Made by a program: the position numbers and the translations under genes. DNA of 64,000 nucleotides from Squalus acanthias (taxonomy: Eukaryota), in contig CM059453.1 of the NCBI GenBank assembly GCA_030390025.1, forward strand, positions 3,720,001 through 3,784,000, read 5' to 3'. The first letter of the stretch is position 1. Each line of letters starts with the position of its first letter. Below the pieces are notes generated by a model. The model did no database searches. It saw nothing but the letters and a program-made list of their open reading frames with translations, and was not told where the DNA came from. Positions 1-64,000 of this stretch are shown here, one piece after another.

Positions 1-18
1 CGATGCTCTGTTTCACAT

Positions 19-303
19 TCCCCTTGGCAAACGCACGTATCTGTATCAGTCCAGATAAACACATATTTAAACAAGATGAGGACAAGGTGACCCTGAAGTG
101 TTCGGTGATGGGATCTTATCCCACCTACTCCTGGAGCTATGGCGGGAAGCCTTTACCGGAAAACACACGGTATACACTTTCTGCCGAAAAAAGCAACCAA
201 ACAATCAATCCCTTGAAAACAACCGATAACGGAGACTTCGTCTGTAACGGAACGAACATCGTGAACACTGTTGAGAGCCCAGCAGTCAAGTTAATGATCT
301 ACG
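19..303 (+). pseudogene. Orphan inverted paralog of exon 3 (Ig C2) with a mutated acceptor
   Basis: 285 nt and open, both Ig Cys kept, G|gtgag donor kept; acceptor reads ttcacAT instead of ttcacAG. Confidence 0.85.
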
Positions 304-1856
304 GTGAGAAAACTCATTTCTATTGTTAAATACTAACTATACATTATAATAGTTCTCAAACTGTCAACTGAATCTCCGGGAGCGAAATTCGACTGTGGTG
401 GGATGTAAAACGGGCGGTATCGCATTGGCCGCCTGTTATGTGCTCCGCCAGATATCCGGTTCTATTGAAGCCATATTGAAGTGATACCGCCTGTTCTGCA
501 TCCATGCCCAAATCTATTTTTTGTCCAGGGACATATCATTGAATGTGGCAAATTCTTATTCTTACTTCTGTAGTCCATCGAAATGTTTGGATACTATGAT
601 TTCAATCTGCATGAATGTACTAGAACCGAAACTGCATATTTATCAAAGCGGCTAAGGGCATTAAACAGGGAGCGCAACAGAGACTGGATAAACTGACGGT
701 GTTTGAAATAAGATGTATCTGGTATTCAATTGAGAGGTAAAATTGCAATGCAGTTTGGCAATGATAACTGTTAAATTATTGCACATGGGTTGAAAAGGGC
801 GAGTAGACCTTGATCGGAATTGCTTTAGATCATTGAGCTGTAGGAAGACGCAGTACTGCCATCATCTCATTGATATGAAGCTGATTGGGGTGTGCACTGA
901 TAGGAAGTGGTAGCACAACTTAGCCAACCAGTCCTGATTTGACACTTCAGTAGATATTGAAGGGGTCGGGGACCCCCTCTGGGAGACATTGTGCCAGAGC
1001 TTGGCTTCAAGGTTCAATAGAGATTTAATAGCGCTGTACAAAATTATGAAGAGTTTAGATCGAGTAAATATAGAGAAACTGTTTCTACTGGTAGCAGCGT
1101 GGGTAACCAGAGGTCACTGATTTAAAATAATTGGGAAATAACCAGATGAGGAGCTTTCTTTATGCAGCGTGTTGTAGTTATCTAGAATGCGCTGCCTGAA
1201 AGGGCGGTGGAAGCAGGTTCAATAATAACTTTCAAAAGGGAATTGGATATTAACTTGAAAAGGAAACAATTGCTGGGTTATGGGGAACGGGTAGGGGAGT
1301 GGGACTGAGTTCAAAGAGCCGGTACAGACACGATGGGCTGGATGGCCTCCTTCTGTGCTGTATCATTCAAAGACGTTATGTTTTATTCCAGGGTATATAT
1401 AACTCCAGCTATGTTTGAAACCAGATTTTACAAAACTGGTCAGCTGGTCTGGTGAAAATCTTGGTACCTTAACCATCGTGTCATTGAGGCTTCTTCGTCT
1501 TGTGAACGATGTCACTGCTGCTCACACTTCTCTAAAAGTATAAAGAGAAACGAGAGATGTGCGGGGCTGTCGGCTGCACTCTGAATTCTGCATCTACTGG
1601 TCTGAGACTGATGATCAAGTCAAACTGCAGCCTTAGAAAGAGCTCGCAGTGATGGACAGATTACTATAAATGTTGTGACGATTAAATAATTTGAATGGAT
1701 GCGATTTGCCAGAGGTGAGCATAGTGAGTATGTAGCAGAGTAGAGTTTGCAGTGAACTAGAGCGGCTGGTTAAGTATTAAGTTTTATTTATTGATTCATT
1801 GATTAGCTGTTAAAATATTACTGGATAACAAATCAGTGACTGGTGATGTGGAGTGC

Positions 1857-3560
1857 GGCTGCAGAGAACAGTATCTATCCCCCTGACTATATTGTCCCCT
1901 ACTACTGCCATATTCCTTCCTTCTCCCCCCAGTTGGATGGCCCCCTGTACCACAGTGCCGTGGTCAGTTTTCCCATTCTCCCTGCAGTCCTTTTCCTCAT
2001 CCATACAGGTAGAAAGTACCTCGTACCTGTTGGACAATGTCCAGGATTGAGGCTCCTCCATCACTACATCCTGGCTCCCTATACCTTCCTCCTGTCCCTG
2101 ACCACTGACGATCTCTAAAGTACTACTTAACCTAAAGGGTGTGACTGCCTCCTGGAACAAAGTGTCCAGGTAATTCTCCCCCTCCCTGATGCATCGCAAT
2201 GTCTGCAGCTCGTACTCCAGCTCAACAATTCTGAGCCGAAGTTCCTCGAGTTGCAGACACTTACTGCAGATGTGGTTGCTCGGGATCGCGATGCTCTCCA
2301 CAGACTCCCACATGCTGCAGTTATGACACACCATCTGCCCTGCCATCTCATAGAATCATAGAAAATAGGAGCAGGAGTAGGCCATTCGGCCCCTCGAGCC
2401 TGCTCCGCCATTCAATGAGATCATGGCTGATTATCCAAATTCAGTACCCTGTCCCTGCCTTCTCCCCATATCCCTTGATCCCTTTAGCCTTAAGAAATAT
2501 ATCTAACTCCTTCTTGAATATATTTAATGAGTTGGCCTCAACTGCCTTCTGTGGTAGAGAATTCCACAGGTTCACCGCTCTCTGGGTGAAGAAATTCCTC
2601 CTCATCTCTTTCCTAAATGGCTTACCCTTATCCTTAGACTGTGACCCTTGGTTCTGGACTCCCCAGCCATCGGGAACATCCTTCCTGCATCTAGTCTGTC
2701 TAGTCCTGTTAGAATTTTATACCTTTCAATGAGATCCCCTCTCATTCTTCTAAACTCCAACGAGTATACGCCCAACCGACCCAATCTCTCCTCATACGTC
2801 ATTCCTGCCATCTCAGGTATCAGTCTGGTGAATCTTCGCTGCACTCCCTCCATGGCAATAACATCCTTCCTCAGATAAGGTGACCAAAACTGCACACAAT
2901 ACTCAAGATGTGGTCTCACCAAGGCTCTGTACAACTGCAGCAAGACATCCTTGTTCCTGTACTCGAACCCTCTCGCTGCGAAGGCCAAACTACCATTTGC
3001 ATTCTTAACTGCCTGCTGCACCTGCATGCTTACCTTCAGCGACTGGTGCACAAGGGCACCCAGGTCTCGTTGCACTTCCCCTTCTCCCAATCTATTGCCG
3101 TTCAGATAATAAGCTCTCTTCCTGTTTTTGCCACCAAAGTGGATAGCCTCGCATGTAGTGGATAACCTCGCTTTTATTTTGTTTTATTTATTAATTAATT
3201 ATTAAAACATTTTATCCAATCGATATTTTACGTTTATTGTTTGATTATTTTATTTTATTTAAATTATTAATTTAATAAGTACTGGCAAGGTACAGTTCCT
3301 CAGATCTTAATTTAACCCCCCTTCCCTAACTTAGGGAGCAAAAAAGAGCTGCATTACTCACCAACCAAACACCTACCTGCTCTCATGTGACGTCGCACTT
3401 TGTTGTTTTTGAATCGGAGCCCCGGCTGCAGCTGCTTTAATTCAGGTCTGCTCCCGGGCCTCTCTTTATCCTGTCGCCGCGGCCGCTGCTTTAATTCGGG
3501 TCCGCTCACGGGCCGCTCTTTTTCCACTCGCCGCTGCCGCCGCTTGATTGATTTTTTGTT
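1857..3560 (-). mobile_element. CR1 5'UTR/ORF1 fragment split by a second CR1 3' fragment (about 2350-3165); duplicated at about 56229-57932
   Basis: ORF MAGQMVCHNC... is homologous to 36360-36855; the inner element has RPHLEYCVQFWSP and a tail. Confidence 0.88.
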
Positions 3561-3855
3561 TGTTTTGTTATTGGTAAATGCTGATATAATGCCTTGATAT
3601 AGTGACCTGTTAGTTGACAGTTTTGCGGGCAGTAACTTGTCTTGGGTGCCAGTGCAAAACTGGCGGTATCAAAACGTCCGCCTGCCCCGCCCGATATTCT
3701 CTTCCGTTGTCATCAATGGAGCTGAATATCTGTCTGTGTGTATAACAGGCGGCCAATGCGATGCCGACCGTTTTGCACGACTGCCGGAGACAAATTTCTA
3801 CCCTCAAATCTTTTTGCTAGAACCGCGCTACCACATGTTATCACATGGTATGACA

Positions 3856-4561
3856 ATGGCCCAGATATTCCGATCCCTATGGGTGGGTACACGCTGTGTA
3901 CCCACCCGTAGGGACATCAGAAATGCCGTTTTCAGGCATGCACAGCGCCTGCGCTGAAAACCGGCATTTCCGATCTGTCAAGATTGCTCTTGACAGATCC
4001 TCTGGCTTCTGCGGGCGGATAGTTCCGCTTTTTGGAGAACCTCCACCCGCAGAAAACCTTTACAATTCTTACACCTGGAAAAAGTTGAAAAAAGTTTTTT
4101 TTTAAATTCGCCCATTTATCATTTAAAAATCCTTTAAAAAAGGTAAGTTTATTTTTAGCCCCGTATTTAACTTTATATACTTTATTCAAAAATTTAAATT
4201 TTTGTTTAAAATATTTAATTTATTGTAATTTCAAATCATTTTAAAAATGTGATTTAAAAAAATGTATTTAAAGTTTTACTATGTTTTGGGGTGATCACCA
4301 TTCATATATTTGACAGGTCTTCCTGTCAAGTGTATGAAGGGACATTCCCTTCTTTGATTGGCTCCCCATGGTCCACGTGATCTAGGGACACTTGCGAACA
4401 GCATGCACCCCTGGGATACGTAGGCCCTGCACACTTGGAGTTGGAGAGGCCCAGCATCGGAACTTTACGCACCTCGGGAGCCCTCAGGTAAGTGCGGAGA
4501 TTTTTTCCAGATCGGAGGCTTCCGCACGCGGGCAGCCTCCGATCGGTAAATACGGCCCATT
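3856..4561. mobile_element. Non-autonomous TIR element (copy B near 58228-58933; related fragment near 35885-36064)
   Basis: Imperfect TIR atggcccagatattccgatc / gatcggtaaatacggcccat with an AT-rich core. Confidence 0.6.
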
Positions 4562-6586
4562 GCCTTTCAGACTTACTGGCCGACTGCTGCTATGGGAGAA
4601 CGGGAAGCGCTGAGCGGCAAAACTGCGCGTAACACAATTCGAAATATCTTCATTTATTGGGCCGGAATTTGCGGTGGGTAATAACGGCAAAATAACAATG
4701 TTCACCGTTAATAACCCTTTGAAACTGACCACAACTTCAGGATTTAGCGCATGCGCATCCTTATGTGGAAACCTTGAAGTTGCGGTCAGTCATTCAATGC
4801 TTCCAGACAGGCTGTGCCCGCGGCACCCACCCTCCCCACCACCCCACTATAGCCAGCAATCAGTGTAATCAGGGAAACTGTCGAAAACATGGGTTTTTCA
4901 GCGGTAATAGCGCTGTTAAATACCCCATTAAAAGTTCGACCTTGTTGGATTAGGTATAACTGGGGTTATAAGAACGTATTTACTGCTAAACAAACGTTAT
5001 GGCACTGAAAAACTAATTTTAATTTTGTGGAGTGTCAAATTTCTCCATTATGATAAAAGTTAAAATTTTAAAGAAATTAAGAAGATTGTTTTAAAAAAGT
5101 TTTTTCATGATATTTCAGCTTCTACCTTATCCCCATGTGAGAGCCCCAATCTTAGTTTTGCTTCCTGTAACATTTTAAAAAGTCGGAATAAAAGAAGGTT
5201 CTCATTTAATGGTTCCCTGTCGGTGAGAATTCTGCATTGCGATTAGCTGCTCAGACAGCTTGTTGATGTCACAGCAGATTCCACTCGGGAATCCCTGCTA
5301 TAAAGTGCTGAAATCACTTAAAAACATAGAAACATAGAACAGTACAGCACTGTACAGGCCCTTCGGCCCTCGATGTTGTGCCGAGCATTGTCCGAGACCA
5401 AGATCAAGCTATCACACTCCCTATCACTCTGGTGTGCTCCATGTGCTTATCCAATAACCGCTTGAAAGTTCCTAAAGTGTCCGACTCCACTATCACAGCA
5501 GGCAGTCCATTCCACACCCCAACCACTCTCTGAGTAAAGAATCTACCTCGGACATCCCTTCTATATCTCCCCCCATGCACCTTATAGTTATGCGCCCTTG
5601 TAACAGCTGCCTCTACCCGAGGAAATAGTCTCTGAACATCCACTCTATCTATCCCCCTCATCATCTTATAAACCTCTATTAAGTCGCCTCTCATCCTCCT
5701 CCGCTCTAAAGAGAAAAGCCCCAACTCCCTCAATCTTTCCTCATAAGACCTCCCCCCCAAACCAGGCAGTATCCTGGTAAATCTCCTTTGCACTCTTTCC
5801 AATGCTTCCACGTCCTTCCTATAGTGAGGTGACCAGAACTGCACACAATATTCCAAATGTGGTCTCACCAAGGTCCTGTACAGTTGCAGCATAACCTCAC
5901 GGTTCTTAAACTCAAACCCTCTGTTAATAAACGCCAACACACCATAGGCCTTCTTTACTGCTCTGTCCACTTCAGTGGCAACCTTCAGAGATCTGTGGAT
6001 ATGAACCCCCAGATCCCTCTGCTCCTCCACGTTCCTCAGAACCCTGCCGTTGACCCTGTAATCCTTATTCAAATTTGCCCTACCAAAATGAATCACCTCG
6101 CACTTATCAGGGTTAAATTCCATCTGCCATTTTTCGGCCCAGCTCTGCATCCTATCAATGTCTCTTTGCAGCCGACAACAGCCCTCCACCTCATCCACTG
6201 CTCCACCAATCTTGGTGTCATCAGCAAATTTACTGATCCACCCTTCAGTCCCCTCCTCCAAGTCATTGATAAAAATCACAAACAGCAGAGGACCCAGCAC
6301 CGACCCCTGTGGCACACCGCTGGTAACTGGTCTCCAGTCCGAAAATATTCCATCCACCACCACCCTCTGCCTTCTATGAGATAGCCAGTTACTTATCCAA
6401 TCGGCCAAATTTCCCTCGATCCCACAACTCCTTACTTTCTCCATGAGCCGACCATGGGGAACCTTATCAAACGCCTTACTAAAATCCATGTATACGACAT
6501 CAACTGCTCTACCTTCATCTACACACTTAGTTACCTCCTCAAAGAATTCAATCAAATTTGTTAGGCAAGACTTACCCTTCACGAAT

Positions 6587-8320
6587 ACGATAGCAAAATA
6601 CTGCGGATGCTGGAAATCTGAAATAACAACAGAAAACGCTGGAAAAACTCAGCTGGCCAGGCAGCATCCGTGGAGAGAGAAAGAGAGTTAACGTTTCAGG
6701 TCGATGACCTTTCGTCAGAACTGTGAAGAGCCGGAAATCAAATAGATTTAAGGCCAGAGTAAAGCTGGGAAAAGGGGGAGGGGATAAAAGAACAAAGGGG
6801 GAGATGAAGAGACATTAAGAGACATTAAGAGATATGCAAGGCTAGAGGTGGTGTTAATGTGACAGATTAAGGCTGAATGAAGTGTGAAATCCACTGGCAG
6901 AATGAAGGACAGCTGCCAGCTTCTAGGAGGAAAAAAAAAAGGTGGGGGTGGGGGCAAACAAAAGGGTGGAAAAAATAAAATATAAATGTGATTGGAGCTG
7001 AGGTTATGATCTAAAATTGTTGAACTCGATATTGAGTCCAGAGGGCTGTAGCGTGTCTAAACGAACGATGAGGTGCTGTTCCTCGAGCTTATGCTGCGCT
7101 TCCGTGGAACAGTGTAATAGGCCGAGGACGGTGAGGTCAGAGTGGGAGTGAAGCGGTGAATTAAAGTGACAGGCCACCGGGAGCTCGGGGTCCCCCTTAC
7201 GGACTGAACGGAGGTGTTCCGCAAAGCGGTCACCCAATCTGCGTTTGGTCTCCCCAGTGTAGAGGAGACCACATCGTGAGCAGCGAATACAGTATACTAA
7301 ATTGCAGGAAGTACAAGTAAATCGCTGTTTCACCTGGAAGGGGGTGTTTGGGGCCCTGGACAGTGGGAAGAGGGGAGGTGTAAGGGCATGTGTTGCATCT
7401 CCTGCGCGTGCACAGGAAGGTGCCGGGCGAAGGGGAAGGGGTGCTGGGGGTGGTAGAGGAGTGGACTAGGGTGTCGCGGAGGGAGCGGTCCCTGCGGAAT
7501 GCTGAAAGGGGAGGTGAGGGGAAGATGTGTTTGGTGGTGGGATCATGCTGGAGGTGGCGGAAATGGCGGAGGATGATCCATTGAATGTGGAGGCTGGTGG
7601 GGTGAAAGGTGAGGACAAGGGGAACCCTATCGTGGTTCCGGGAGGGAGGGGCAGGGGTGAGGGCAGAAGTGTGGGAGATAGAACGGACACAGTCGAGGGC
7701 CGTGTCAACCATGGTAGAGGGGAATCCTCGGTTGAGGAAAAAGGAAGACATGTCGGAAGCACTGGTATGGAAGATGGCATCATCAGAGCAGATGCGGCGG
7801 AGACGGAGAAACTGGGAGAATGGAATAGAGTCCTTACAGGAGGCGGGGTGGGAGGAAGTGTAGTCCAGGTAGCTGTGGGAGTCAGTGGGCTTGTAGTGAA
7901 TGTTAGTCAATAACCTATCCCCAGAGATGGAGATGGAGAAGTCGAGGAAGGGAAGGGAAGAGTCGAAGATGGACCATGTGAAGGTGAGGGAACGGTGGAA
8001 ATTGGAAGCATAGTGAATGAAATGTTCTAGTTCAGGGCGAGAGCAGGAGACGGCACCGATACAGTCATCAATGTACCGGAAAAAGAGGTGAGGGAGGGGA
8101 CCCGAGTAGGACTGGAACAAAGAGTGTTCCACATATCCCACGAAAAGGCAGGCATAGCTAGGACCCATGCGGGTACCCATAGCAACACCTTTAATTTGGA
8201 GGAAATGGGTAGAGTCAAAGGAGAAGTTGTTCAATGTGAGAACAAGTTCAGCCAGGCGGAGGAGGGTGGTGGTGGATGGGGACTGGTTGGGCGTCTGTTC
8301 AAGGAAGAAGCGGAGCGCCC
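6587..8320 (-). mobile_element. Penelope-like element (5'-truncated RT + GIY-YIG endonuclease + terminal repeat)
   Basis: GVAMGTRMGP, RYIDD, LVYCIRC..C..LYTGET..R...RF.EH; TSD tcacgaat at 6579-6586 and 8321-8328; frameshift near 7345. Confidence 0.93.
6686..6722 (-). ncRNA. Minimal type I hammerhead ribozyme motif in the Penelope terminal repeat
   Basis: agtt-CTGACGA-a-aggtc-atc-gacct-GAAAC-GTT-aact: conserved core, helix II, helix I (AGTT/AACT) and a palindromic loopless helix III. Confidence 0.65.
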
Positions 8321-11300
8321 TCACGAATCCGTGTTGACTATCCCTGATTAAGTTGCCCCTTTCCAAATGGTCATAAACCCTATCCCTCAGGACCTTTTCC
8401 ATTATCTTACCAACCACCGAAGTAAGACTAACCGGCCTATAATTACCAGGGTCATTCCTATTTCCTTTCTTGAAGAGAGGAACAACATTCGCCACTCTCC
8501 AGTCCTCTGGCACCATTCCCGTGGACAGTGAGGACCCAAAGATCAAAGCCAGAGGCTCTGCAATCTTCTCCCTTGCCTCCCAAAGAATCCTAGGATATAT
8601 CCCATCTGGCCCAGGGGACTTATCGACCCTCAGGTTCTTCAAAATTGCTAAAACATCTTCCCTCAGAACATCTACCACCTCCAGCCTATCCACCTTTATC
8701 ACACTCTCATCCTCAAGAACATGGCCCCTCTCCTCGGTGAACACTGACGAAAAGTATTCATTCATCACCTCTCCTATTTCTTCTGACTCCATGCACAAGT
8801 TTTCACTACTGTCCTTGACCGGCCCTACCCTCACCCTGGTCATTCTTTTATTTCTCACATAAGAGTAAAAGGCCTTGGGGTTTTTCTTGATCCGAAGCGC
8901 CAAGGACTTCTCATGCCCCCTCCTAGCTCTCCTAAGCTCTTTTTTTAGCTCATTCCTTGCTACCTTGTACCCCTCAATCGACCCAACTGAACCTGTTTTC
9001 TCATCCTTACATACGCTTCCTTTTTCCTCTTGACTAGACATTCAACCTCTTTTGTGAACCATGGTTCTCTCACTCGGCCATTTCCTCCCTGCCTGACAGG
9101 GACATACCTATCAAGGACACGCAGTAATTGCTCCATGAAAAAGCTCCACTTTTCGTTTGTGCCTTTCCCTGATAGTTTCTGTTCCCATCTTATACTCCCT
9201 AATTCTTGCCTAATCGCATCATAATTACCCCTCCCCCAATTATAAACCCTGCCCTGCCGTATGGCCCTATCCCTCTCCATTGCAATAGTGAAAGTTACCG
9301 AATTGTGGTCACTATCTCCAAAGTGCTCTCCCACATACAAATCAAACACTTGGCCCGGTTCATTACCCAGTACCAAATCCAACGTGGCCCCACCTCTTGT
9401 CGGCCTATCCACATATTGTGTCAGGAAACCCTCCTGCACACACTCTGCAAAAACTATCCCATCCGAACTGTTTGACCTATAAAGGTTCCAATCAATATTT
9501 GGAAAGTTGAAGTCACCCATGACAACTTCTCTGTGACCTCCACACCTATTCATAATCTGCTTTGCAATTTCTTCCTCCACATCTCTATTACTATTTGGGG
9601 GCCTGTAGAAAACTCCTAACAACGTGACCGCTCCTTTCCGATTTCTAACTTCAGCCCATATTACCTCAGACGGCAGATCCCCCTCGAACTGCCTTTCTGC
9701 CGCTGTTAAACTATCCTTGATTAACAATGCTACTCCTCCACCTTTCTTACCAACTTCCCTACTCTTACTGAAACATCTATACCCCGGAACTTCCAACAAC
9801 CATTCCTGTCCCTGTTCTAACCATGTCTCCGTAATGGCCACCACATCGTAGTCCCAAGTACCAATCCATGCTCCAAGTTCTCCTACCTTATTCCGGATGC
9901 TCCTTGAATTGAAGTAGACACACTTACACATCGAAAAATGCAGACAGCTTTCTTCAGGGCCAACAGCAAACGCCTTTACTGCACCACTGACCACAAATTC
10001 AGTGTCATTTTATTTCATGCATGTGCATTACCAAGCTAATAGTGACCAGTGTTAATAATGAAATACATTCTTGATTCATCTTCTTTATGTGCATTTATGG
10101 CTACGTGTTAGCCGTGGCTCATTGGGTAGCCCTCTCGTCACTGAATGATAAGACTCGCGGGTTCACAATCCAACATCCAGAGGATTGAGCACAAAATCTA
10201 GGCCGACATTCTTGGTGCGGTACTGAGGGAGTTATGTAATTAACCCGGGTCGCCGTTTGCCCTCTCAGGTGGAAGTAAAATACCCCAGGTCCACTATTCG
10301 ATGAAGAACCCGTGAGTTATCCCAATACCTTGGCCAATATTTATTGCTTAGTCAGTACCGAAAAAAGATTATCTTGTCATTATCACTGATTATGGGATCT
10401 TGCTGTTCGCAAATTGGCTGTCCATTTTCCTACATTGCACTTCAAAAGTACGTCATTGTCTGTAAAGAGTTTCAGAGCATCCAGAGGTCGTGAAAGGCGT
10501 GAAATAAATCCAAGTCTTTCTTTTTTTGAATGTGGGCAACGTTGGTGAGTGATTATTGATTGTCCCTCTGTAGTTGCTCTGAGGCCATTAAGATTCAGCC
10601 AAATAGCATGGTACTGGAGTTACTCGTAGGTCAGACTGGGTAGTGGTTGGCACGCTCCCTTCCCTTTAAGATAGTTCGTTCGGTTTTGCGGCACAATTGC
10701 AGGAAACTCGTATATAAGACTCTCCAATTTAGCAGTGGAGCCAGTTTTACCAGCGGAAATAAATGCAGGTGGAGAGATCGGGAGACGATCGTACAACATC
10801 GAGAAGATTTGGGCTGATTGTACTTGTACCGTTATTCACTTACACCCAAAATTCCACGATCTATTAGGCGGCCTCATTGTTTTGCTGCCCGGTTGCACGT
10901 TTCTCTGAGCGCAAATATGGAGGAAATTTAATGAGGAAAATATTTTATATCCATGATATTCACTGGAATTTACCTCTGCACAAGACTTACTCAAGGCAAT
11001 TCTCTGACTCAGCGATTAAATAATTCTCCAGCCCTAAGTGATCCAACTGTCTAGAGACCCAATTGGCCCTTCTTCCCTGAAAGTAACCTGTCTGCGACTT
11101 GTTTGGATTATTGGGCCCACACTCGTCCTTGCCTTCTTCATGGAGTAGATTGTCTCCATTTCCCTTTCTGAGCAAGTTTACAAGTGTAAAAAAGACATGA
11201 AAAAGTTTCTCTCCTTCAAAGAACTCTGTCTTTATGCTTCATCTGTCCTGGTGTAAATGAAAGGTTCCATTGCCGGAATACAAAGCAGTAGGCTTCCACT

Positions 11301-21045: not shown

Positions 21046-21140
21046 GATGCTCTGTAGGAAGGAAATAAAAGTTAAAACACGTTTGATTGGGACCAAATTA
21101 ACTCTGTGGTAGACAAGTGCTCAATGAATGAAGATCTCAC

Positions 21141-34770: not shown

Positions 34771-34824
34771 CTTTTAAAAGGCCGCTTTGAATCAATTGCC
34801 AAAGTCTAATATTTCCCCACTTAC

Positions 34825-47525: not shown

Positions 47526-47571
47526 CCAGGTTAGCGAACAGCAGAAATAAAACGGACAGCAACCTCGCCAT
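47526..47571 (-). CDS. Exon 1 (signal peptide) of a CEACAM/VSIG10L-like IgSF type I receptor
   Basis: cagacATGG Kozak-like context; MARLLSVLFLLFANL(G) is hydrophobic; ends G|gtgag in phase 1. Too short for the ORF track. Confidence 0.85.
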
Positions 47572-47639
47572 GTCTGATCACTGCCACAATCTCACACTAA
47601 CAGGCAAAGGACGATCTGAACGCTTGGCCTCCTCTATCG

Positions 47640-50654: not shown

Positions 50655-51590
50655 TACTGTAAGATTATAGTCAATTTACTTATTCATTTGTCCAACAACA
50701 CTTGTTTTTTTATACACATTTATATGCATGCAGTTACTNNNNNNNNNNNNNNNNNNNNNNNNNNNNNNNNNNNNNNNNNNNNNNNNNNNNNNNNNNNNNN
50801 NNNNNNNNNNNNNNNNNNNNNNNNNNNNNNNNNNNNNNNNNNNNNNNNNNNNNNNNNNNNNNNNNNNNNNNNNNGGCAAATTAAACAGTTTAGTGAAAAG
50901 ACTGATGGTCAAAACACTGATCAGTTTGGCATTTTTATCAGAGTAGATTATAACTGAACAAAACACAGGGAAAAGGCATGCAGCCTTGAACCTTGAACAG
51001 ACAGTAGTTTAATAACCTGAGAAAAACAAGGCGTAGGTGGGGCTGGAACCAGAGCAACCATAGCAACTAGACTGATAAGGGAGTTTCACTGGACAGATAA
51101 GAAGGGGCCTGCGTGCTAGAAATAACATCTCTTGAAGTAGGTGTTTTTCAGTGGTATGTAACAGAAGGAGTGGGACCGTGTGAGATCAGAGGAGAAGAGA
51201 GAGGACCTATTAGGGGAGAAAGGGACGCTGAGTGACAGATCCGAGGGAAATTATATAGGATAGAATTGAAAGAAATGTTATAAGAAAGGGACACCAGCAG
51301 AGGTTAAGTGTAGCAGGAGGCTGAGGAGGATTTGTGCAATTCTCCGAGACACTCAGAGGCGAATACGGGCTGAGGCAGGGCCAGATTGGTGCAGACAACT
51401 TTTACCGTGACTTTTACCCGAGGCATAAACGGGGCCGTATAACTCGTAATTATACCTTGTAAACTGCTGCTTAAGATGCAGTGATTGCACTGATTTTTGC
51501 TTATGCTGAATAAACTATTAACCACTGCCACCAATACAGGTTAATGTCGAATCATTTGGAATCAAAGGTCTCACAAAGAGATTCTTGCAC
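50655..51590 (+). repeat. Diverged inverted copy of about 27215-28120 (intron 7)
   Basis: gtaagattatagtcaatttactta and tctcacaaagagattcttgca match the reverse complement of intron 7. Confidence 0.88.
50739..50874. other. 136-nt N gap
   Basis: Run of N at the position homologous to the (TA)n(TG)n tract near 27950. Confidence 0.99.
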
Positions 51591-53334
51591 TACACAAGTC
51601 TTTGAAGGTGGCACGACAAGTTGAGAAGACTGTTAAAAAGTCATACAGAATACTTGGCTTTATCAATAGAGGCAGAGAGTGCAAAAGCAAGGAAGTCATG
51701 CCAAACGTTTATAAAACAGTGATTAGAGCGCAGCTGGAGTATTGTGGGCAATACTGGGCACCACACTTTAAGAAGGATGTCTATGACATAGAGAGGTTGC
51801 AGTGCAGATTTACAAGAATGATACCAGGGATGGGGGACTTCAGTTACGTGGAGAGACTGGAGAAGCTGGGGTTGTTCTTCTTCAAGCAGAGAAGTTTAAT
51901 GGGTATTTGATAGAGGTGTTCAAAACAATAAGGGTTTTGATAGAATAAATTTGGATAAACTGCTTTCAGTGACTGATGTGTCGCGAATCAGAGTTTTAAG
52001 GTAATTGGCAAAAGAACCATAGTTGTTCTGAATAACTTTCAAAAGAAATTGCTATATAGTTGCGGGGGGAAATTTGCAGGGCTATGGTTAACGTGCAGGG
52101 GAGTGGGCAACGAGCCGGCATGGACACGTTGGGCCGAATGGCCTCCACCTGTGCTGTATTATTGTATGATTCTATGAAAAGCAAAATACTGGGCATCTGA
52201 AATAAAAACAGAACTAGCTGGAAAACTCCGGCAACATCTGTGGAGAGAGAGAAACACATTTAACGTTTCAAGGTAATCTGTTCTGCTAGTTTTCCCTCAG
52301 TACCGCACTGACCAATGAGCCCAGGTTGTGTGCTAAAGTCCTGGAGTGACAAACCGCTGCCTCAGAGGCGAGTCCTTTTAACGAGTTAATTCCCGATCAT
52401 TGCTTCTCAGTGGCCAATGAGAAAACCCCATAGTCGGCAGTTTGGGAAGCTGAGTCATGGACTTTTATCACGAAGGCTGTGTCACATTGGGTTAGAAATC
52501 CGGATTTGTTGGTAGTGCACCACAGGTGGTATCAGCAATGGCACAGTTGGTAGCACCATCGCCTCTGATTCAGAAGATTGTGTGGTTCAATTTCCACTCC
52601 AGAGACTTGGGCACAAAATCTAGGCAGCTCCTGTGCAATACTGAGCAAGTGCTGCACTGTTTGAGGTGTCGTCTTTCGGATGTGACCTTAAAACGAACAG
52701 CTATCTTCCCTCGCAGATGGACGTAAAAGATTCTATGGCACTGTTTCAAAGAAGAGGGCGAAAGGGATAGACCGAGTAATTACAGACCAGTCAGCCTAAC
52801 CTCGGTGGTGGGAAAATTATTGGAAAAATTCTGAGGGACAGGATACATTTTCATTTAGAAAGACACGGATTAATCAGGGACAGTCAGCGTGGATTGTTAA
52901 GGGAAGGCCGTGTCTGACTAACTTGATTGAATTTTTTGTGGAGGCAACAATGAGGGTCAATGAGGGTATTGCGTTTGATGTAGTCTATATGGATTTCAGC
53001 AAGGCTTTTGTTAAGGTCCCGCATGGCAGACTGGTCACGAAAGTAAAAGCCAATGGGATCCAAGGCAAAGTGGCAAGTGGGATCCGAATTGGCTCAGAGG
53101 CAGGAAACAAAGTGTAATGGTCGAAGGGTGTTTTTGTGACTGGAATGCTGTTTCCAGTGGGGTTCTGGAGGGCTCAGTACTGGGTCCTCTGCTTTTTGTG
53201 GTATATGTCAATGACTTACACTTGAATGTAGGAAGTAAGATTAAGAAGTTTCAGATGATACAAACATTGGCTGTGTGGTTGATAATGAAGAAGAAAACTG
53301 CAGACTGCAGGAAGATATCAATGGACTAGTCCCA

Positions 53335-56228
53335 GCAGTGAAAGAAACACACCTACCCTTTGCACCTCAAATATGTCCAAACTGTGAGGTGACGTTCCTT
53401 CAGTGAAGTGCCTATAACCTCACTTGCTCATGAATAAAAGGGGGAAAGTAAACTCACTGGCTTCCCGATTTGCACCAGCCCGCCCGTGGGTCTCAGATGG
53501 AATACCGGCCAGGTCCCATTTACATCCTGTGGATAACTGCTGGCTACAAAAAACAACAACTTGCATTAATGTAGCGCCTCAAACGTAGTAAAACGTCACG
53601 GAAGCGTTATCAAATATAATTTGACACCGAGCCACTTAAGGAGATATTTGGGCAGATGTCCAAAGGCTTGGTCAAAGTAAATGTTAAGGAGCGTCTTAAA
53701 TGAGGAGAGAGAGGTGGAGAAGCGGATAGGGAGGGCATTTCAGAAATAGGGCCGAGGCAGCTGAAAGTACGGTCGCCAATGGATGAGCGAAGGGGATTGG
53801 AGATGCACAAGAGGTTAAAATTGGAGGAGCGCAGAGATCTCGGAGGTTTGTAGGGCTGGAGGAGGTTAGTGAGATAGGGAGTGGCGAGGCTACGGAGGGG
53901 TTTCAACAGAAGGATGAGAAAAGGCAGCTGGCCGACTGCTGTCAAGCGCAGAACGCGTGGCTTGGGCAGCAATCAGGAAAGTGGGGTGGGGGTTGGGGAA
54001 GGGGAGAAGTACTGGGGCATTCGAGGTTTGATTTTCGTTTTGGGGCCAATGGAAACACTCCTAATCCAGATGGTCAGATAAGTTCAAAACTTTTCTTTTC
54101 GTTCCTTTCCTGATACATTTTACTAAATGGGTCCATACACCTCGTAGTACCCAGATTAGCATATTAATGAGGTGCCTACCCGAGTCAATGTCCGCCTGAG
54201 CGCCTGCAAAATGCAAGGGGGGTGGGGGGCATCTGCTTCGGGGCGGAATTTGAAGCAGAGAGAGTCGCTCGATTTTAACTCCTGTTCCTTTCGGTTTCCG
54301 CCCGGCGGAGTGAGCTAAAATTCCCACTAAATCTAAGATGAGCGTCGACGCGTGGAGAACCAGTTTCTAAACCGATGCTCGGTTTCACATTCCCCTTGGC
54401 AAACGCACGTATCTGTATCAGTCCAGATAAACACATATTTAAACAAGATGAGGACAAGGTGACCCTGAAGTGTTCGGTGATGGGATCTTATCCCACCTAC
54501 TCCTGGAGCTATGGCGGGAAGCCTTTACCGGAAAACACACGGTATACACTTTCTGCCGAAAAAAGCAACCAAACAATCAATCCCTTGAAAACAACCGATA
54601 ACAGAGACTTCGTCTGTAACGGAACGAACATCGTGAACACTGTTGAGAGCCCAGCAGTCAAGTTAATGATCTACGGTGAGAAAACTCATTTCTATTGTTA
54701 AATACTAACTATACATTATAATAGTTCTCAAACTGTCAACTGAATCTCCGGGAGCGAAATTCGACTGTGGTGGGATGTAAAACGGGCGGTATCGCATTGG
54801 CCGCCTGTTATGTGCTCCGCCAGATATCCGGTTCTATTGAAGCCATATTGAAGTGATACCGCCTGTTCTGCATCCATGCCCAAATCTATTTTTTGTCCAG
54901 GGACATATCATTGAATGTGGCAAATTCTTATTCTTACTTCTGTAGTCCATCGAAATGTTTGGATACTATGATTTCAATCTGCATGAATGTACTAGAACCG
55001 AAACTGCATATTTATCAAAGCGGCTAAGGGCATTAAACAGGGAGCGCAACAGAGACTGGATAAACTGACGGTGTTTGAAATAAGATGTATCTGGTATTCA
55101 ATTGAGAGGTAAAATTGCAATGCAGTTTGGCAATGATAACTGTTAAATTATTGCACATGGGTTGAAAAGGGCGAGTAGACCTTGATCGGAATTGCTTTAG
55201 ATCATTGAGCTGTAGGAAGACGCAGTACTGCCATCATCTCATTGATATGAAGCTGATTGGGGTGTGCACTGATAGGAAGTGGTAGCACAACTTAGCCAAC
55301 CAGTCCTGATTTGACACTTCAGTAGATATTGAAGGGGTCGGGGACCCCCTCTGGGAGACATTGTGCCAGAGCTTGGCTTCAAGGTTCAATAGAGATTTAA
55401 TAGCGCTGTACAAAATTATGAAGAGTTTAGATCGAGTAAATATAGAGAAACTGTTTCTACTGGTAGCAGCGTGGGTAACCAGAGGTCACTGATTTAAAAT
55501 AATTGGGAAATAACCAGATGAGGAGCTTTCTTTATGCAGCGTGTTGTAGTTATCTAGAATGCGCTGCCTGAAAGGGCGGTGGAAGCAGGTTCAATAATAA
55601 CTTTCAAAAGGGAATTGGATATTAACTTGAAAAGGAAACAATTGCTGGGTTATGGGGAACGGGTAGGGGAGTGGGACTGAGTTCAAAGAGCCGGTACAGA
55701 CACGATGGGCTGGATGGCCTCCTTCTGTGCTGTATCATTCAAAGACGTTATGTTTTATTCCAGGGTATATATAACTCCAGCTATGTTTGAAACCAGATTT
55801 TACAAAACTGGTCAGCTGGTCTGGTGAAAATCTTGGTACCTTAACCATCGTGTCATTGAGGCTTCTTCGTCTTGTGAACGATGTCACTGCTGCTCACACT
55901 TCTCTAAAAGTATAAAGAGAAACGAGAGATGTGCGGGGCTGTCGGCTGCACTCTGAATTCTGCATCTACTGGTCTGAGACTGATGATCAAGTCAAACTGC
56001 AGCCTTAGAAAGAGCTCGCAGTGATGGACAGATTACTATAAATGTTGTGACGATGAAATAAATCGAATGGATGCGATTTGCCAGAGGTGAGCATAGTGAG
56101 TATGTAGCAGAGTAGAGTTTGCAGTGAACTAGAGCGGCTGGTTAAGTATTAAGTTTTATTTATTGATTCATTGATTAGCTGTTAAAATATTACTGGATAA
56201 CAAATCAGTGACTGGTGATGTGGAGTGC
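53335..56228 (+). repeat. Diverged inverted copy of about 41950-45075 (intron 2, exon 3, intron 3)
   Basis: Reverse-complement matches at both ends and throughout, e.g. aactgtgaggtgacgttccttcagtgaagtg and gcagtgaactagagcggctggttaagtatt. Confidence 0.9.
54391..54675 (+). pseudogene. Second copy of the orphan exon 3 paralog
   Basis: Same as 19-303 except G>R (DNGD to DNRD); same AG>AT acceptor lesion. Confidence 0.85.
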
Positions 56229-59200
56229 GGCTGCAGAGAACAGTATCTATCCCCCTGACTATATTGTCCCCTACTACTGCCATATTCCTTCCTTCTCCCC
56301 CCAGTTGGATGGCCCCCTGTACCACAGTGCCGTGGTCAGTTTTCCCATTCTCCCTGCAGTCCTTTTCCTCATCCATACAGGTAGAAAGTACCTCGTACCT
56401 GTTGGACAATGTCCAGGATTGAGGCTCCTCCATCACTACATCCTGGGTCCCTATACCTTCCTCCTCTCCCTGACCACTGACGATCTCTAAAGTACTACTT
56501 AACCTAAAGGGTGTGACTGCCTCCTGGAACAAAGTGTCCAGGTAACTCTCCCCCTCCCTGATGTATCGCAATGTCTGCAGCTCGTACTCCAGCTCAACAA
56601 TTCTGAGCCGAAGTTCCTCGAGTTGCAGACACTTACTGCAGATGTGGTTGCTCGGGATCGCGATGCTCTCCACAGACTCCCACATGCTGCAGTTATGACA
56701 CACCATCTGCCCTGCCATCTCATAGAATCATAGAAAATAGGAGCAGGAGTAGGCCATTCGGCCCCTCGAGCCTGCTCCGCCATTCAATGAGATCATGGCT
56801 GATTATCCAAATTCAGTACCCTGTCCCTGCCTTCTCCCCATATCCCTTGATCCCTTTAGCCTTAAGAAATATATCTAACTCCTTCTTGAATATATTTAAT
56901 GAGTTGGCCTCAACTGCCTTCTGTGGTAGAGAATTCCACAGGTTCACCGCTCTCTGGGTGAAGAAATTCCTCCTCATCTCAGTCCTAAATGGCTTACCCT
57001 TATCCTTAGACTGTGACCCTTGGTTCTGGACTCCCCAGCCATCGGGAACATCCTTCCTGCATCTAGTCTGTCTAGTCCTGTTAGAATTTTATACCTTTCA
57101 ATGAGATCCCCTCTCATTCTTCTAAACTCCAGCGAGTATACGCCCAACCGACCCAATCTCTCCTCATACGTCATTCCTGCCATCCCAGGTATCAGGCTGG
57201 TGAATCTTCGCTGCACTCCCTCCATGGCAATAACATCCTTCCTCAGATAAGGTGACCAAAACTGCACACAATACTCAAGATGTGGTCTCACCAAGGCTCT
57301 GTACAACTGCAGCAAGACATCCTTGTTCCTGTACTCGAACCCTCTCGCTGCGAAGGCCAAACTACCATTTGCATTCTTAACTGCCTGCTGCACCTGCATG
57401 CTTACCTTCAGCGACTGGTGCACAAGGGCACCCAGGTCTCGTTGCACTTCCCCTTCTCCCAATCTATTGCCGTTCAGATAATAAGCTCTCTTCCTGTTTT
57501 TGCCACCAAAGTGGATAGCCTCGCATGTAGTGGATAACCTCGCGTTTATTTTGTTTTATTTATTAATTAATTATTAAAACATTTTATCCAATCGATATTT
57601 TACGTTTATTGTTTGATTATTTTATTTTATTTAAATTATTAATTTAATAAGTACTGGCAAGGTACAGTTCCTCAGATCTTAATTTAACCCCCCTTCCCTA
57701 ACTTAGGGAGCAAAAAAGAGCTGTATTACTCACCAACCAAACACCTACCTGCTCTCATGTGACGTCGCACTTTGTTGTTTTTGAATCGGAGCCCCGGCTG
57801 CAGCTGCTTTAATTCAGGTCTGCTCCCGGGCCTCTCTTTATCCTGTCGCCGCGGCCGCTGCTTTAATTCGGGTCCGCTCACGGGCCGCTCTTTTTCCACT
57901 CGCCGCTGCCGCCGCTTGATTGATTTTTTGTTTGTTTTGTTATTGGTAAATGCTGATATAATGCCTTGATATAGTGACCTGTTAGTTGACAGTTTTGCGG
58001 GCAGTAACTTGTCTTGGGTGCCAGTGCAAAACTGGCGGTATCAAAACGTCCGCCTGCCCCGCCCGATATTCTCTTCCGTTGTCATCAATGGAGCTGAATA
58101 TCTGTCTGTGTGTATAACAGGCGGCCAATGCGATGCCGACCGTTTTGCACTACTGCCGGAGACAAATTTCTACCCTCAAATCTTTTTGCTAGAACCGCGC
58201 TACCACATGTTATCACATGGTATGACAATGGCCCAGATATTCCGATCCCTATGGGTGGGTACACGCTGTGTACCCACCCGTAGGGACATCAGAAATGCCG
58301 TTTTCAGGCATGCACAGCGCCTGCGCTGAAAACCGGCATTTCCGATCTGTCAAGATTGCTCTTGACAGATCCTCTGGCTTCTGCGGGCGGATAGTTCCGC
58401 TTTTTGGAGAACCTCCACCCGCAGAAAACCTTTACAATTCTTACACCTGGAAAAAGTTGAAAAAAGTTTTTTTTTAAATTCGCCCATTTATCATTTAAAA
58501 ATCCTTTAAAAAAGGTAAGTTTATTTTTAGCCCCGTATTTAACTTTATATACTTTATTCAAAAATTTAAATTTTTGTTTAAAATATTTAATTTATTGTAA
58601 ATTCAAATCATTTTAAAAATGTGATTTAAAAAAATGTATTTAAAGTTTTACTATGTTTTGGGGTGATCACCATTCATATATTTGACAGGTCTTCCTGTCA
58701 AGTGTATGAAGGGACATTCCCTTCTTTGATTGGCTCCCCATGGTCCACGTGATCTAGGGACACTTGCGAACAGCATGCACCCCTGGGATACGTAGGCCCT
58801 GCACACTTGGAGTTGGAGAGGCCCAGCATCGGAACTTTACGCACCTCGGGAGCCCTCAGGTAAGTGCGGAGATTTTTTCCAGATCGGAGGCTTCCGCACG
58901 CGGGCAGCCTCCGATCGGTAAATACGGCCCATTGCCTTTCAGACTTACTGGCCGACTGCTGCTATGGGAGAACGGGAAGCGCTGAGCGGCAAAACTGCGC
59001 GTAACACAATTCGAAATATCTTCATTTATTGGGCCGGAATTTGCGGTGGGTAATAACGGCAAAATAACAATGTTCACCGTTAATAACCCTTTGAAACTGA
59101 CCACAACTTCAGGATTTAGCGCATGCGCATCCTTATGTGGAAACCTTGAAGTTGCGGTCAGTCATTCAATGCTTCCAGACAGGCTGTGCCCGCGGCACCC

Positions 59201-60958
59201 ACCCTCCCCACCACCCCACTATAGCCAGCAATCAGTGTAATCAGGGAAACTGTCGAAAACATGGGTTTTTCAGCGGTAATAGCGCTGTTAAATACCCCAT
59301 TAAAAGTTCGACCTTGTTGGATTAGGTATAACTGGGGTTATAAGAACGTATTTACTGCTAAACAAACGTTATGGCACTGAAAAACTAATTTTAATTTTGT
59401 GGAGTGTCAAATTTCTCCATTATGATAAAAGTTAAAATTTTAAAGAAATTAAGAAGATTGTTTTAAAAAAGTTTTTTCATGATATTTCAGCTTCTACCTT
59501 ATCCCCATGTGAGAGCCCCAATCTTAGTTTTGCTTCCTGTAACATTTTAAAAAGTCGGAATAAAAGAAGGTTCTCATTTAATGGTTCCCTGTCGGTGAGA
59601 ATTCTGCATTGCGATTAGCTGCTCAGACAGCTTGTTGATGTCACAGCAGATTCCACTCGGGAATCCCTGCTATAAAGTGCTGAAATCACTTAAAAACATA
59701 GAAACATAGAACAGTACAGCACTGTACAGGCCCTTCGGCCCTCGATGTTGTGCCGAGCATTGTCCGAGACCAAGATCAAGCTATCACACTCCCTATCACT
59801 CTGGTGTGCTCCATGTGCTTATCCAATAACCGCTTGAAAGTTCCTAAAGTGTCCGACTCCACTGTCACAGCAGGCAGTCCATTCCACACCCCAACCACTC
59901 TCTGAGTAAAGAATCTACCTCGGACATCCCTTCTATATCTCCCCCCATGCACCTTATAGTTATGCGCCCTTGTAACAGCTGCCTCTACCCGAGGAAATAG
60001 TCTCTGAACATCCACTCTATCTATCCCCCTCATCATCTTATAAACCTCTATTAAGTCGCCTCTCATCCTCCTCCGCTCTAAAGAGAAAAGCCCCAACTCC
60101 CTCAATCTTTCCTCATAAGACCTCCCCCCCAAACCAGGCAGTATCCTGGTAAATCTCCTTTGCACTCTTTCCAATGCTTCCACGTCCTTCCTATAGTGAG
60201 GTGACCAGAACTGCACACAATATTCCAAATGTGGTCTCACCAAGGTCCTGTACAGTTGCAGCATAACCTCACGGTTCTTAAACTCAAACCCTCTGTTAAT
60301 AAACGCCAACACACCATAGGCCTTCTTTACTGCTCTGTCCACTTCAGTGGCAACCTTCAGAGATCTGTGGATATGAACCCCCAGATCCCTCTGCTCCTCC
60401 ACGTTCCTCAGAACCCTGCCGTTGACCCTGTAATCCTTATTCAAATTTGCCCTACCAAAATGAATCACCTCGCACTTATCAGGGTTAAATTCCATCTGCC
60501 ATTTTTCGGCCCAGCTCTGCATCCTATCAATGTCTCTTTGCAGCCGACAACAGCCCTCCACCTCATCCACTGCTCCACCAATCTTGGTGTCATCAGCAAA
60601 TTTACTGATCCACCCTTCAGTCCCCTCCTCCAAGTCATTGATAAAAATCACAAACAGCAGAGGACCCAGCACCGACCCCTGTGGCACACCGCTGGTAACT
60701 GGTCTCCAGTCCGAAAATATTCAATCCACCACCACCCTCTGCCTTCTATGAGATAGCCAGTTACTTATCCAATCGGCCAAATTTCCCTCGATCCCACAAC
60801 TCCTTACTTTCTCCATGAGCCGACCATGGGGAACCTTATCAAACGCCTTACTAAAATCCATGTATACGACATCAACTGCTCTACCTTCATCTACACACTT
60901 AGTTACCTCCTCAAAGAATTCAATCAAATTTGTTAGGCAAGACTTACCCTTCACGAAT

Positions 60959-62692
60959 ACGATAGCAAAATACTGCGGATGCTGGAAATCTGAAATAACA
61001 ACAGAAAACGCTGGAAAAACTCAGCTGGCCAGGCAGCATCCGTGGAGAGAGAAAGAGAGTTAACGTTTCAGGTCGATGACCTTTCGTCAGAACTGTGAAG
61101 AGCCGGAAATCAAATAGATTTAAGGCCAGAGTAAAGCTGGGAAAAGGGGGAGGGGATAAAAGAACAAAGGGGGAGATGAAGAGACATTAAGAGACATTAA
61201 GAGATATGCAAGGGTAGAGGTGGTGTTAATGTGACAGATTAAGGCTGAATGAAGTGTGAAATCCACTGGCAGAATGAAGGACAGCTGCCAGCTTCTAGGA
61301 GGAAAAAAAAAAGGTGGGGGGGGGGGGCAAATAAAAGGGTGGAAAAAATAAAATATAAATGTGATTGGAGCTGAGGTTATGATCTAAAATTGTTGAACTC
61401 GATATTGAGTCCAGAGGGCTGTAGCGTGTCTAAACGAAAGATGAGGTGCTGTTCCTCGAGCTTACGCTGCGCTTCCGTGGAACAGTGTAATAGGCCGAGG
61501 ACGGTGAGGTCAGAGTGGGAGTGAAGCGGTGAATTAAAGTGACAGGCCACCGGGAGCTCGGGGTCCCCCTTACGGACTGAACGGAGGTGTTCCGCAAAGC
61601 GGTCACCCAATCTGCGTTTGGTCTCCCCAGTGTAGAGGAGACCACATCGTGAGCAGCGAATACAGTATACTAAATTGCAGGAAGTACAAGTAAATCGCTG
61701 TTTCACCTGGAAGGGGGTTTTGGGGCCCTGGACAGTGGGAAGAGGGGAGGTGTAAGGGCATGTGTTGCATCTCCTGCGCGTGCACAGGAAGGTGCCGGGC
61801 GAAGTGGAAGGGGTGCTGGGGGTGGTAGAGGAGTGGACTAGGGTGTCGCGGAGGGAGCGGTCCCTGCGGAATGCTGAAAGGGGAGGTGAGGGTAAGATGT
61901 GTTTGGTGGTGGGATCATGCTGGAGGTGGCGGAAATGGCGGAGGATGATCCATTGAATGTGGAGGCTGGTGGGGTGAAAGGTGAGGACAAGGGGAACCCT
62001 ATCGTGGTTCCGGGAGGGAGGGGCAGGGGTGAGGGCAGAAGTGCGGGAGATAGAACGGACACGGTCGAGGGCCGTGTCAACCATGGTAGAGGGGAATCCT
62101 CGGTTGAGGAAAAAGGAAGACATGTTGGAAGCACTGGTATGGAAGATGGCATCATCAGAGCAGATGCGGCGGAGACGGAGAAACTGGGAGAATGGAATAG
62201 AGTCCTTACAGGAGGCGGGGTGGGAGGAAGTGTAGTCCAGGTAGCTGTGGGAGTCAGTGGGCTTGTAGTGAATGTTAGTCAATAACCTATCCCCAGAGAT
62301 GGAGATGGAGAAGTCGAGGAAGGGAAGGGAAGAGTCGAAGATGGACCATGTGAAGGTGAGGGAAGGGTGGAAATTGGAAGCATAGTGAATGAAATGTTCT
62401 AGTTCAGGGCGAGAGCAGGAGACGGCACCGATACAGTCATCAATGTACCGGAAAAAGAGGTGAGGGAGGGGACCCGAGTAGGACTGGAACAAAGAGTGTT
62501 CCACATATCCCACGAAAAGGCAGGCATAGCTAGGACCCATGCGGGTACCCATAGCAACACCTTTAATTTGGAGGAAATGGGTAGAGTCAAAGGAGAAGTT
62601 GTTCAATGTGAGAACAAGTTCAGCCAGGCGGAGGAGGGTGGTGGTGGATGGGGACTGGTTGGGCGTCTGTTCAAGGAAGAAGCGGAGCGCCC
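60959..62692 (-). mobile_element. Penelope-like element, copy B (RT-GIY-YIG frame intact)
   Basis: As copy A but without the frameshift; forms the C-terminal part of the 678-aa ORF 61377-63413. Confidence 0.93.
61058..61094 (-). ncRNA. Hammerhead motif, copy B
   Basis: Identical to 6686-6722. Confidence 0.65.
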
Positions 62693-64000
62693 TCACGAAT
62701 CCGTGTTGACTATCCCTGATTAAGTTGCCCCTTTCCAAATGGTCATAAACCCTATCCCTCAGGACCTTTTCCATTATCTTACCAACCACCGAAGTAAGAC
62801 TAACCGGCCTATAATTACCAGGGTCATTCCTATTTCCTTTCTTGAAGAGAGGAACAACATTCGCCACTCTCCAGTCCTCTGGCACCATTCCCGTGGACAG
62901 TGAGGACCCAAAGATCAAAGCCAGAGGCTCTGCAATCTTCTCCCTTGCCTCCCAAAGAATCCTAGGATATATCCCATCTGGCCCAGGGGACTTATCGACC
63001 CTCAGGTTCTTCAAAATTGCTAAAACATCTTCCCTCAGAACATCTACCACCTCCAGCCTATCCACCTTTATCACACTCTCATCCTCAAGAACATGGCCCC
63101 TCTCCTCGGTGAACACTGACGAAAAGTATTCATTCATCACCTCTCCTATTTCTTCTGACTCCATGCACAAGTTTTCACTACTGTCCTTGACCGGCCCTAC
63201 CCTCACCCTGGTCATTCTTTTATTTCTCACATAAGAGTAAAAGGCCTTGGGGTTTTTCTTGATCCGAAGCGCCAAGGACTTCTCATGCCCCCTCCTAGCT
63301 CTCCTAAGCTCTTTTTTTAGCTCATTCCTTGCTACCTTGTACCCCTCCATCGACCCAACTGAACCTGTTTTCTCATCCTTACATACGCTTCCTTTTTCCT
63401 CTTGACTAGACATTCAACCTCTTTTGTGAACCATGGTTCTCTCACTCGGCCATTTCCTCCCTGCCTGACAGGGACATACCTATCAAGGACACGCAGTAAT
63501 TGCTCCATGAAAAAGCTCCACTTTTCGTTTGTGCCTTTCCCTGATAGTTTCTGTTCCCATCTTATACTCCCTAATTCTTGCCTAATCGCATCATAATTAC
63601 CCCTCCCCCAATTATAAACCCTGCCCTGCCGTATGGCCCTATCCCTCTCCATTGCAATAGTGAAAGTTACCGAATTGTGGTCACTATCTCCAAAGTGCTC
63701 TCCCACATACAAATCAAACACTTGGCCCGGTTCATTACCCAGTGCCAAATCCAACGTGGCCCCACCTCTTGTCGGCCTATCCACATATTGTGTCAGGAAA
63801 CCCTCCTGCACACACTCTGCAAAAACTATCCCATCCGAACTGTTTGACCTATAAAGGTTCCAATCAATATTTGGAAAGTTGAAGTCACCCATGACAACTT
63901 CTCTGTGACCTCCACACCTATTCATAATCTGCTTTGCAATTTCTTCCTCCACATCTCTATTACTATTTGGGGGCCTGTAGAAAACTCCTAACAACGTGAC

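Follow-up and report, generated by a model that had tools for sequence, protein, structure and literature searches.

The 64,000 nucleotides of Squalus acanthias analysed here (assembly GCA_030390025.1, contig CM059453.1, forward-strand positions 3,720,001 to 3,784,000; hereafter the window) begin and end with nearly the same sequence, and a complete immunoglobulin (Ig) receptor gene lies between these two ends. We consider a real tandem duplication of a whole unit of about 54.4 kb, gene included, as the most likely reading of this arrangement, with a confidence somewhat better than even. The window would then hold one full period plus 9.6 kb of a head-to-tail duplication whose unit carries the receptor gene. 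The features concerned are the following.

1..9628, plus strand: copy A of the direct repeat, running off the left edge; contains CR1 and Penelope fragments of long interspersed nuclear elements (LINEs), short interspersed nuclear elements and a dead Ig exon
54373..64000, plus strand: copy B, running off the right edge; matches copy A at 99.64% identity
21034..47571, minus strand: intact CEACAM/VSIG10-type Ig receptor gene, 13 coding exons, 865 amino acids (aa)

Extent and content of the repeat

Self-BLAST of the window aligned 1-9628 with 54373-64000 on the plus strand at 99.637% identity (33 mismatches, 2 gaps), with an offset, or repeat period, of 54,372. The match spans base 1 to base 64000, so that both copies are open at the window edge and 9,628 bases is the repeat length seen. 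This agrees with a previous sequence-only reading of the stretch, which had noticed the recurrence at more than 99% identity and the run-off of both copies; it had also placed the whole receptor gene within the bracket of the repeat, and the coding exons, from 47571 to 21034 on the minus strand, indeed lie entirely between the copies. Because the next-longest self-match in the window, a LINE pair, is only 74% identical, the 99.64% repeat is neither chance nor ordinary transposable-element homology. Segmental duplications are blocks of at least 1 kb at 90% identity or more, and the 9,628-base repeat exceeds both values with its copies nearby and in the same orientation, as in a real tandem segmental duplication.

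Global alignment of the copies gave 14 transitions, 19 transversions and two one-base G indels (6943/61316 and 7346/61718, both at G-rich sites), a divergence of 0.34% (95% interval 0.24-0.48). The substitutions and small indels reported earlier are therefore present, but they are clustered and not evenly scattered (dispersion p=0.002): local divergence reaches 0.69% and 0.62% in two LINE fragments and 1.05% over 285 bases, against 0.15-0.27% elsewhere.

Repeat-like sequence makes up about 79% of copy A, and LINE proteins match 56% of its length, with reverse-transcriptase and endonuclease domains found by Pfam; the LINE fragments carry motifs that we take to be those of CR1 and Penelope. The sole gene-derived piece of the repeat is an I-set exon (18-308 / 54390-54680). 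A direct repeat of long terminal repeat (LTR) or transposon type was considered and rejected, the block consisting of LINE debris.

If the unit covers the gene, a near-identical second gene would be expected near 72.6-102 kb or upstream of base 1. The sequence-only reading had proposed such a tandem array with the gene in its unit; this is also our most likely reading and its position for the second copy is arithmetically right, while the coverage of the gene by the unit is presumed. The duplication would most likely have originated by unequal crossover or by replication-based tandem duplication in a LINE-rich receptor locus, and, from what is established for such loci, unequal crossover or gene conversion, acting on paralogues or on the abundant LINE copies, may have maintained the likeness of its copies. 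Such exchange would make copy number vary between animals, as in the mammalian CEACAM/PSG clusters.

A real but partial duplication is an improbable alternative: either a block of at least 9.6 kb was copied to the other side of the gene, or the second gene of a tandem unit is truncated or deleted. Flank sequence alone is seen twice, and several partial duplicates at the locus (an orphan exon, a tandem exon fragment and an inverted 3.1-kb block) are in line with this alternative, as are two partial models of 252 and 360 aa in the elephant shark, Callorhinchus milii. However, the copies leave the window with no end visible, LINE debris with a dead exon has no LTR or transposon structure to move as a unit, and a single tandem event would explain the direct repeat more simply. 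With a partial duplication, unequal crossover between the two blocks could delete or duplicate the gene.

Paralogues or alleles

We lean modestly towards duplication of the whole unit in view of the absence of a break at 54373, the colinear flanks of the single run of Ns between the copies, the plausibly biological nature of both copies, the larger distance from copy B of two out of three public data sets than of copy A, the gene cluster of C. milii and the older duplications at the locus. The competing explanation is a heterotype false duplication, in which the maternal and paternal versions of a polymorphic, repeat-rich region were assembled in series and A and B are alleles; we hold it to be possible, if on the unlikely side. 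Two features bear on the joint between the copies.

50739..50874, unstranded: 136-base N-run; flanks colinear with an 83% inverted homologue (27214-28118) that has a microsatellite at the corresponding place
53334..56216, unstranded: older inverted duplicate of 41969-45077, 86% identical; crosses the start of copy B unbroken and includes the orphan exon

A junction at 54373 was rejected because the 86% inverted homology between 41969-45077 and 53334-56216 passes through it without break. The exon order is colinear with that of the homologue, which excludes a false join inside the gene. The N-run at 50739-50874 is the only one between copies A and B. Its colinear flanks speak against an assembly artefact, as does the fact that public contigs of the species enter the N-run by 40-44 letters, and the run may be a masked microsatellite rather than a gap. 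A false back-jump at this place is possible but less simple: it would take a further copy of the element that these flanks continue, lying 54 kb away, and a break of both contigs at one and the same point. The interval between the copies has no other gap, and a gapless return to the start of the unit would need a real repeat. The cluster in C. milii is a further precedent against an artefact. Among the 15 joints listed of 808 (45100-64000, contigs only), no credible junction was found, all having 30 letters or fewer on the short side; the longest listed low-depth piece of contigs over this interval has 508 letters. A junction search by repeat continuity did not place the junction: 5,306 bases in 9629-18272 and 2,137 in 47572-53334, together about 7.4 kb of intergenic sequence, have no homologue.

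An error-driven (homotype) false duplicate was also considered. An outgroup was present inside the window for 16 of the 33 substitutions, of which nine are derived in B, six in A and one is undecided (site 231 was polarised by the closest outgroup, at 88%, and not by majority vote). The low transition/transversion ratio was examined as a sign of consensus error and rejected, natural variants showing the same ratio: 14/19 between A and B compares with 19/20, 8/14 and 9/16 for the variants listed in three public runs (p 0.64-0.79). Since both copies carry derived changes, with only 2 indels among 35 differences, and the ratio is that of natural variants, an error-driven duplicate appears unlikely from the sequences compared.

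Public data for the species comprised 11 listed runs, all contigs, of which five hold at least half of the sampled words. Four runs (X1 to X4) were compared with 45100-64000; X1 and X2 are near-identical and were counted as one data set. Divergence was counted on the eight longest listed pieces per run, leaving out two high-depth repeat pieces of X3; these counts are bounded by a 97% filter and represent a small fraction of an output with more than 214,000 pieces and 26 variant rows beyond those considered. Differences from the window amounted to 18/2,215 bases in X1, 24/1,135 in X3 and 10/2,413 in X4. Within copy B, low-depth pieces differed at 10/646 (1.55%), 7/516 (1.36%) and 2/631 (0.32%), respectively. 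X1 is thus further from copy B than A is (p=0.0003), and X4 is not different from A in this respect; in all, two of the three data sets stand further from B than A does, and the third (X4) is equally distant. Sister copies on one chromosome could be this close, and so could two alleles. The ten differences of X1 within copy B all fall outside the A/B sites. Two of the 33 A/B sites lie inside listed low-depth pieces, X3 having the B letter at 58151, and contigs drop one allele.

Because 0.34% is of allelic scale at this locus, a haplotype artefact is a possible, if rather doubtful, account of the repeat: the divergence between the copies stands beside 0.32-1.55% for the three data sets in copy B. 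In addition, sampled-word shares of 0.67-0.78 over the gene's 3' half imply a divergence of no more than 0.8-1.3%; the locus is therefore variable, a setting in which, according to an excerpt of PMC8081667, false duplications arise. The N-run between the copies and the lack of excess contig depth over copy B (uncalibrated) are also consistent with an artefact.

Several results weigh against duplication of the whole unit. Neither a second gene copy nor a junction or spanning read appeared in the 64-kb window or the public contigs. The divergence of 0.34% lies within the 0.3-1.6% by which public runs differ from the window, and X4, at 0.32% from copy B, indicates that ordinary alleles can be as close as A and B; the epaulette shark diversity of 0.002 in an excerpt of PMC10587355 shows that alleles can be as old as the A/B split. 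Gaps typically separate false duplicates, as passages of PMC9516828 and PMC8081667 state, and the N-run lies between the copies, where a gap is a hallmark of false duplication in the former. Contig depth over copy B (X1 11.6-17.7, X4 10.5-13.5; uncalibrated) is no higher than at 50.9-52.6 kb. Finally, shallow searches found one locus per species in three other sharks.

Contig depth was not relied on as a measure of copy number, the bin means of X4 lacking the 5' excess of X1 and the depths being uncalibrated. It is flat across 54373 in these uncalibrated contigs, and flat depth also fits a wholly duplicated unit. The contigs of X1 over intron 1 and the promoter (47393-47973) are two to three times as deep as those at 51-58 kb, 28.9-52.4 against 11.6-17.7 at 50.9-58.0 kb (uncalibrated), a weak hint of extra 5' gene ends in X1. 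X1 and X4 share a sample code; in the 40 variant rows listed within 45100-56000, X1 has the other letter where X4 has the window letter at 12 places, never the reverse, and the two may be different genotypes.

With the shark pedigree rate of 7e-10 per base per generation in the excerpt of PMC10587355, 0.34% corresponds to 2.4 million generations (1.2-12 million over the interval of that rate); with the shark phylogenetic rates of 3.92e-9 to 2.17e-8 in part of PMC9826928, it corresponds to 0.08-0.44 million. The duplication, or its last homogenisation, would date to about 10^5-10^6 generations. The qualification 'very recent' given earlier is unsupported in absolute terms (0.08-2.4 million generations, up to 12 million) and holds only relative to the other duplicates of the window.

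The receptor gene and older duplicates

The gene between the copies has 13 coding exons on the minus strand with canonical AG/GT splice sites and encodes 865 aa with no internal stop. After the signal peptide, the protein has a Cys-free V domain, four I-set domains, two Ig-like domains and one more I-set domain; a transmembrane helix and then a short tail complete it. Homology supports exons one to ten, and a weak match the first tail exon; the last two are assigned by inference. No other gene was found in the 64-kb window. The exons and associated elements are as follows.

47526..47571, minus strand: signal-peptide exon
46993..47313, minus strand: V-set exon, no cysteine, CEACAM-N-like
43764..44048, minus strand: I-set exon 1
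40661..40945, minus strand: I-set exon 2
35085..35369, minus strand: I-set exon 3; four such domains in the window gene, against three in the sawshark protein
34811..35080, minus strand: I-set exon 3 in a 5'-truncated tandem copy that has lost 15 bases and lacks a splice acceptor; begins right at the exon 3 donor site
30606..30890, minus strand: I-set exon 4
29482..29766, minus strand: Ig exon 5
26730..26969, minus strand: short Ig-like exon 6, without a Pfam match; 61% identity with the sawshark model P0001
25843..26157, minus strand: I-set exon 7
24078..24179, minus strand: transmembrane exon
22343..22419, minus strand: cytoplasmic exon 1 (YEEI motif), from splice sites and frame, weak match to P0001
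21141..21194, minus strand: putative cytoplasmic exon 2, assigned by its splice sites and phase and by resemblance to the elephant-shark tail
21034..21051, minus strand: putative last coding exon in the present reading; the CR1 tail supplies its stop
18290..21046, plus strand: 5'-truncated CR1 LINE, 5 bases into the last exon, with a 2-base duplication at its flanks
18..308, plus strand: inverted orphan of I-set exon 1 in copy A, its acceptor AG having become AT
54390..54680, plus strand: orphan inverted copy of I-set exon 1 in copy B, with a dead acceptor (AT) and a Gly-to-Arg change in the DxGxxxC motif

The orphan exon was rejected as part of a plus-strand gene, its acceptor being dead and no further plus-strand Ig exon being present. 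Duplication has occurred repeatedly at this locus before, as seen in the fourth I-set exon, the tandem exon fragment and two inverted duplicates. A 294-base two-copy tandem repeat in intron 3 (42954-43550) is single in the inverted duplicate, and a 0.9-kb low-copy element with an internal microsatellite occurs twice in the window (27214-28118 and 50658-51589), inverted and 83% identical. Within the direct repeat, a Penelope-like fragment adjoins CR1 (61377-63413 / 7004-9041); copy B reads there as a chimeric frame of 678 aa, in which copy A has a one-base shift. This frame is probably a by-product of nesting and not a gene.

The 3' end of the gene seems to have been re-ended by the CR1 insert of 2.8 kb. 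With the exon assignment above, the 8-base tail repeat of the LINE would give the stop of the last coding exon, and the insertion would turn the last tyrosine motif from YQSM to YQSI; read across the insert, the exon would have a slightly longer end resembling the elephant-shark tail. Judged by the consensus of immunoreceptor tyrosine-based inhibitory and activation motifs, the tail is not canonical: with the last two exons as assigned, two YxxI motifs lie at a distance of 19 residues, and position Y-2 is not hydrophobic in either. The family has two tail types, one with two single tyrosine motifs (window gene, elephant shark) and one with repeated YAQV-type motifs (sawshark, smoothhound, catshark), which could be paralogues with different signalling. 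A permissive tblastn search for sawshark-type tail exons in 9.6-24 kb returned one weak match only.

Relatives and known systems

The closest protein found is a 'CEACAM5-like' model of Pristiophorus japonicus (P0001, 61-78% identity per exon), followed by a 'CD22-like' model of Mustelus asterias (P0002), a 'VSIG10-like' model of Scyliorhinus torazame (P0003) and the elephant-shark models; these relatives by themselves would point to a shark as the source of the sequence. The first three have an ectodomain colinear with the window gene, but with three, two and one I-set repeats, respectively, instead of four, and their tails carry repeated YAQV/YAKV/YSQV motifs that the window gene lacks. The number of membrane-distal I-set domains thus varies by species: 4 in the window gene and 3, 2, 1 and 1 in the homologues.

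The V exon has 0 Cys, its Arg and Asp align with those of CEACAM1, and its best PDB match is a CEACAM1, although a weak one (E 1e-6). According to part of PMC4079198, an Arg/Asp salt bridge replaces the disulfide in the N-terminal IgV domain of CEACAMs, and the window V exon has this Cys-free form with Arg/Asp. IgC-like domains with paired cysteines followed by a transmembrane helix, as in CEACAMs, are also present. The CEACAM locus is flanked by ATP1A3/LIPE/TOMM40 synteny in a passage of PMC3628338. In a predicted structure of the sawshark homologue (residues 405-725), six of ten structural neighbours are VSIG10, VSIG10-like or VSIG10-like 2 (TM-score 0.37-0.52), whereas a feature search on the same protein favours other Ig-superfamily names over the VSIG10 group; the VSIG10-type likeness of the membrane-proximal part is a lead, not orthology. 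We call the gene CEACAM/VSIG10-type and place it in neither family. By analogy with the family, the gene may act in adhesion or microbe binding via its V domain, with tyrosine-based signalling; adhesion and microbe binding through the CEACAM V domain are described in part of PMC4079198.

If the duplication is real, the locus would be an undescribed shark Ig-receptor locus with probable copy-number variation and a target for shark immunogenetics, mammalian members of the family binding pathogens through the V domain; literature searches, mainly of open-access text without supplements, returned no description of a shark gene or cluster of this type. If it is false, a 54-kb assembly error would be inflating the gene count and distorting variant calling in a variable region. 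The mechanism is a familiar one in both cases, and the locus is of use for annotation and for checking the assembly rather than as new biology.

In C. milii, at least 4 gene models of this family (annotated as VSIG10-like, 'hemicentin-1-like' and 'CEACAM1-like'; XP_042201582, 590, 591-593, 596) are found on records sharing one 259,846-base contig size, and so are apparently clustered on one contig; two of them are partial, as noted above. They resemble the window gene in their domain series and in a similar tail with two tyrosines, but have one membrane-distal I-set domain where the window gene has four. Two full-length models differ at 14/104 residues in V, 16/97 in Ig5, 0/101 in the last Ig domain and 1/90 in the transmembrane segment and tail. 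Among the C. milii copies the contrast is 14/104 in V against 0-2/101 in the last Ig domain, whereas in the window only the repeat flanks are seen twice. Such a pattern is that expected of a young, homogenised receptor cluster, as far as automated, unverified models from another lineage can suggest. A broader and speculative proposal, to which we attach a low probability, is that a shark and chimaera CEACAM-like cluster is independently copy-number variable, with near-identical membrane-proximal parts, fast-changing V domains and copies perhaps differing in their tails (here the LINE-changed YxxM to YxxI); such a paired-receptor/decoy system, driven by pathogens, would predate the mammalian examples by about 400 million years.

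In humans, copy-number polymorphism through segmental duplications is common among the CEACAM/PSG genes, as described in part of PMC3628338. These genes share with the window locus a Cys-free V Ig receptor and near-identical blocks around whole genes, and their copy number is altered by large duplications. These variants, however, have been demonstrated in populations and extend over several genes and hundreds of kb, whereas only flanks are seen twice in the window. Heterotype false duplications, from passages of PMC8081667 and PMC9516828, resemble the window in their tandem near-identical copies at allelic divergence, an N-run between them and a variable repeat-rich region; unlike them, the window has an N-run with colinear flanks and no backward jump. 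A near-identical duplication around an Ig receptor is thus of a known kind, as is its artefactual mimic.

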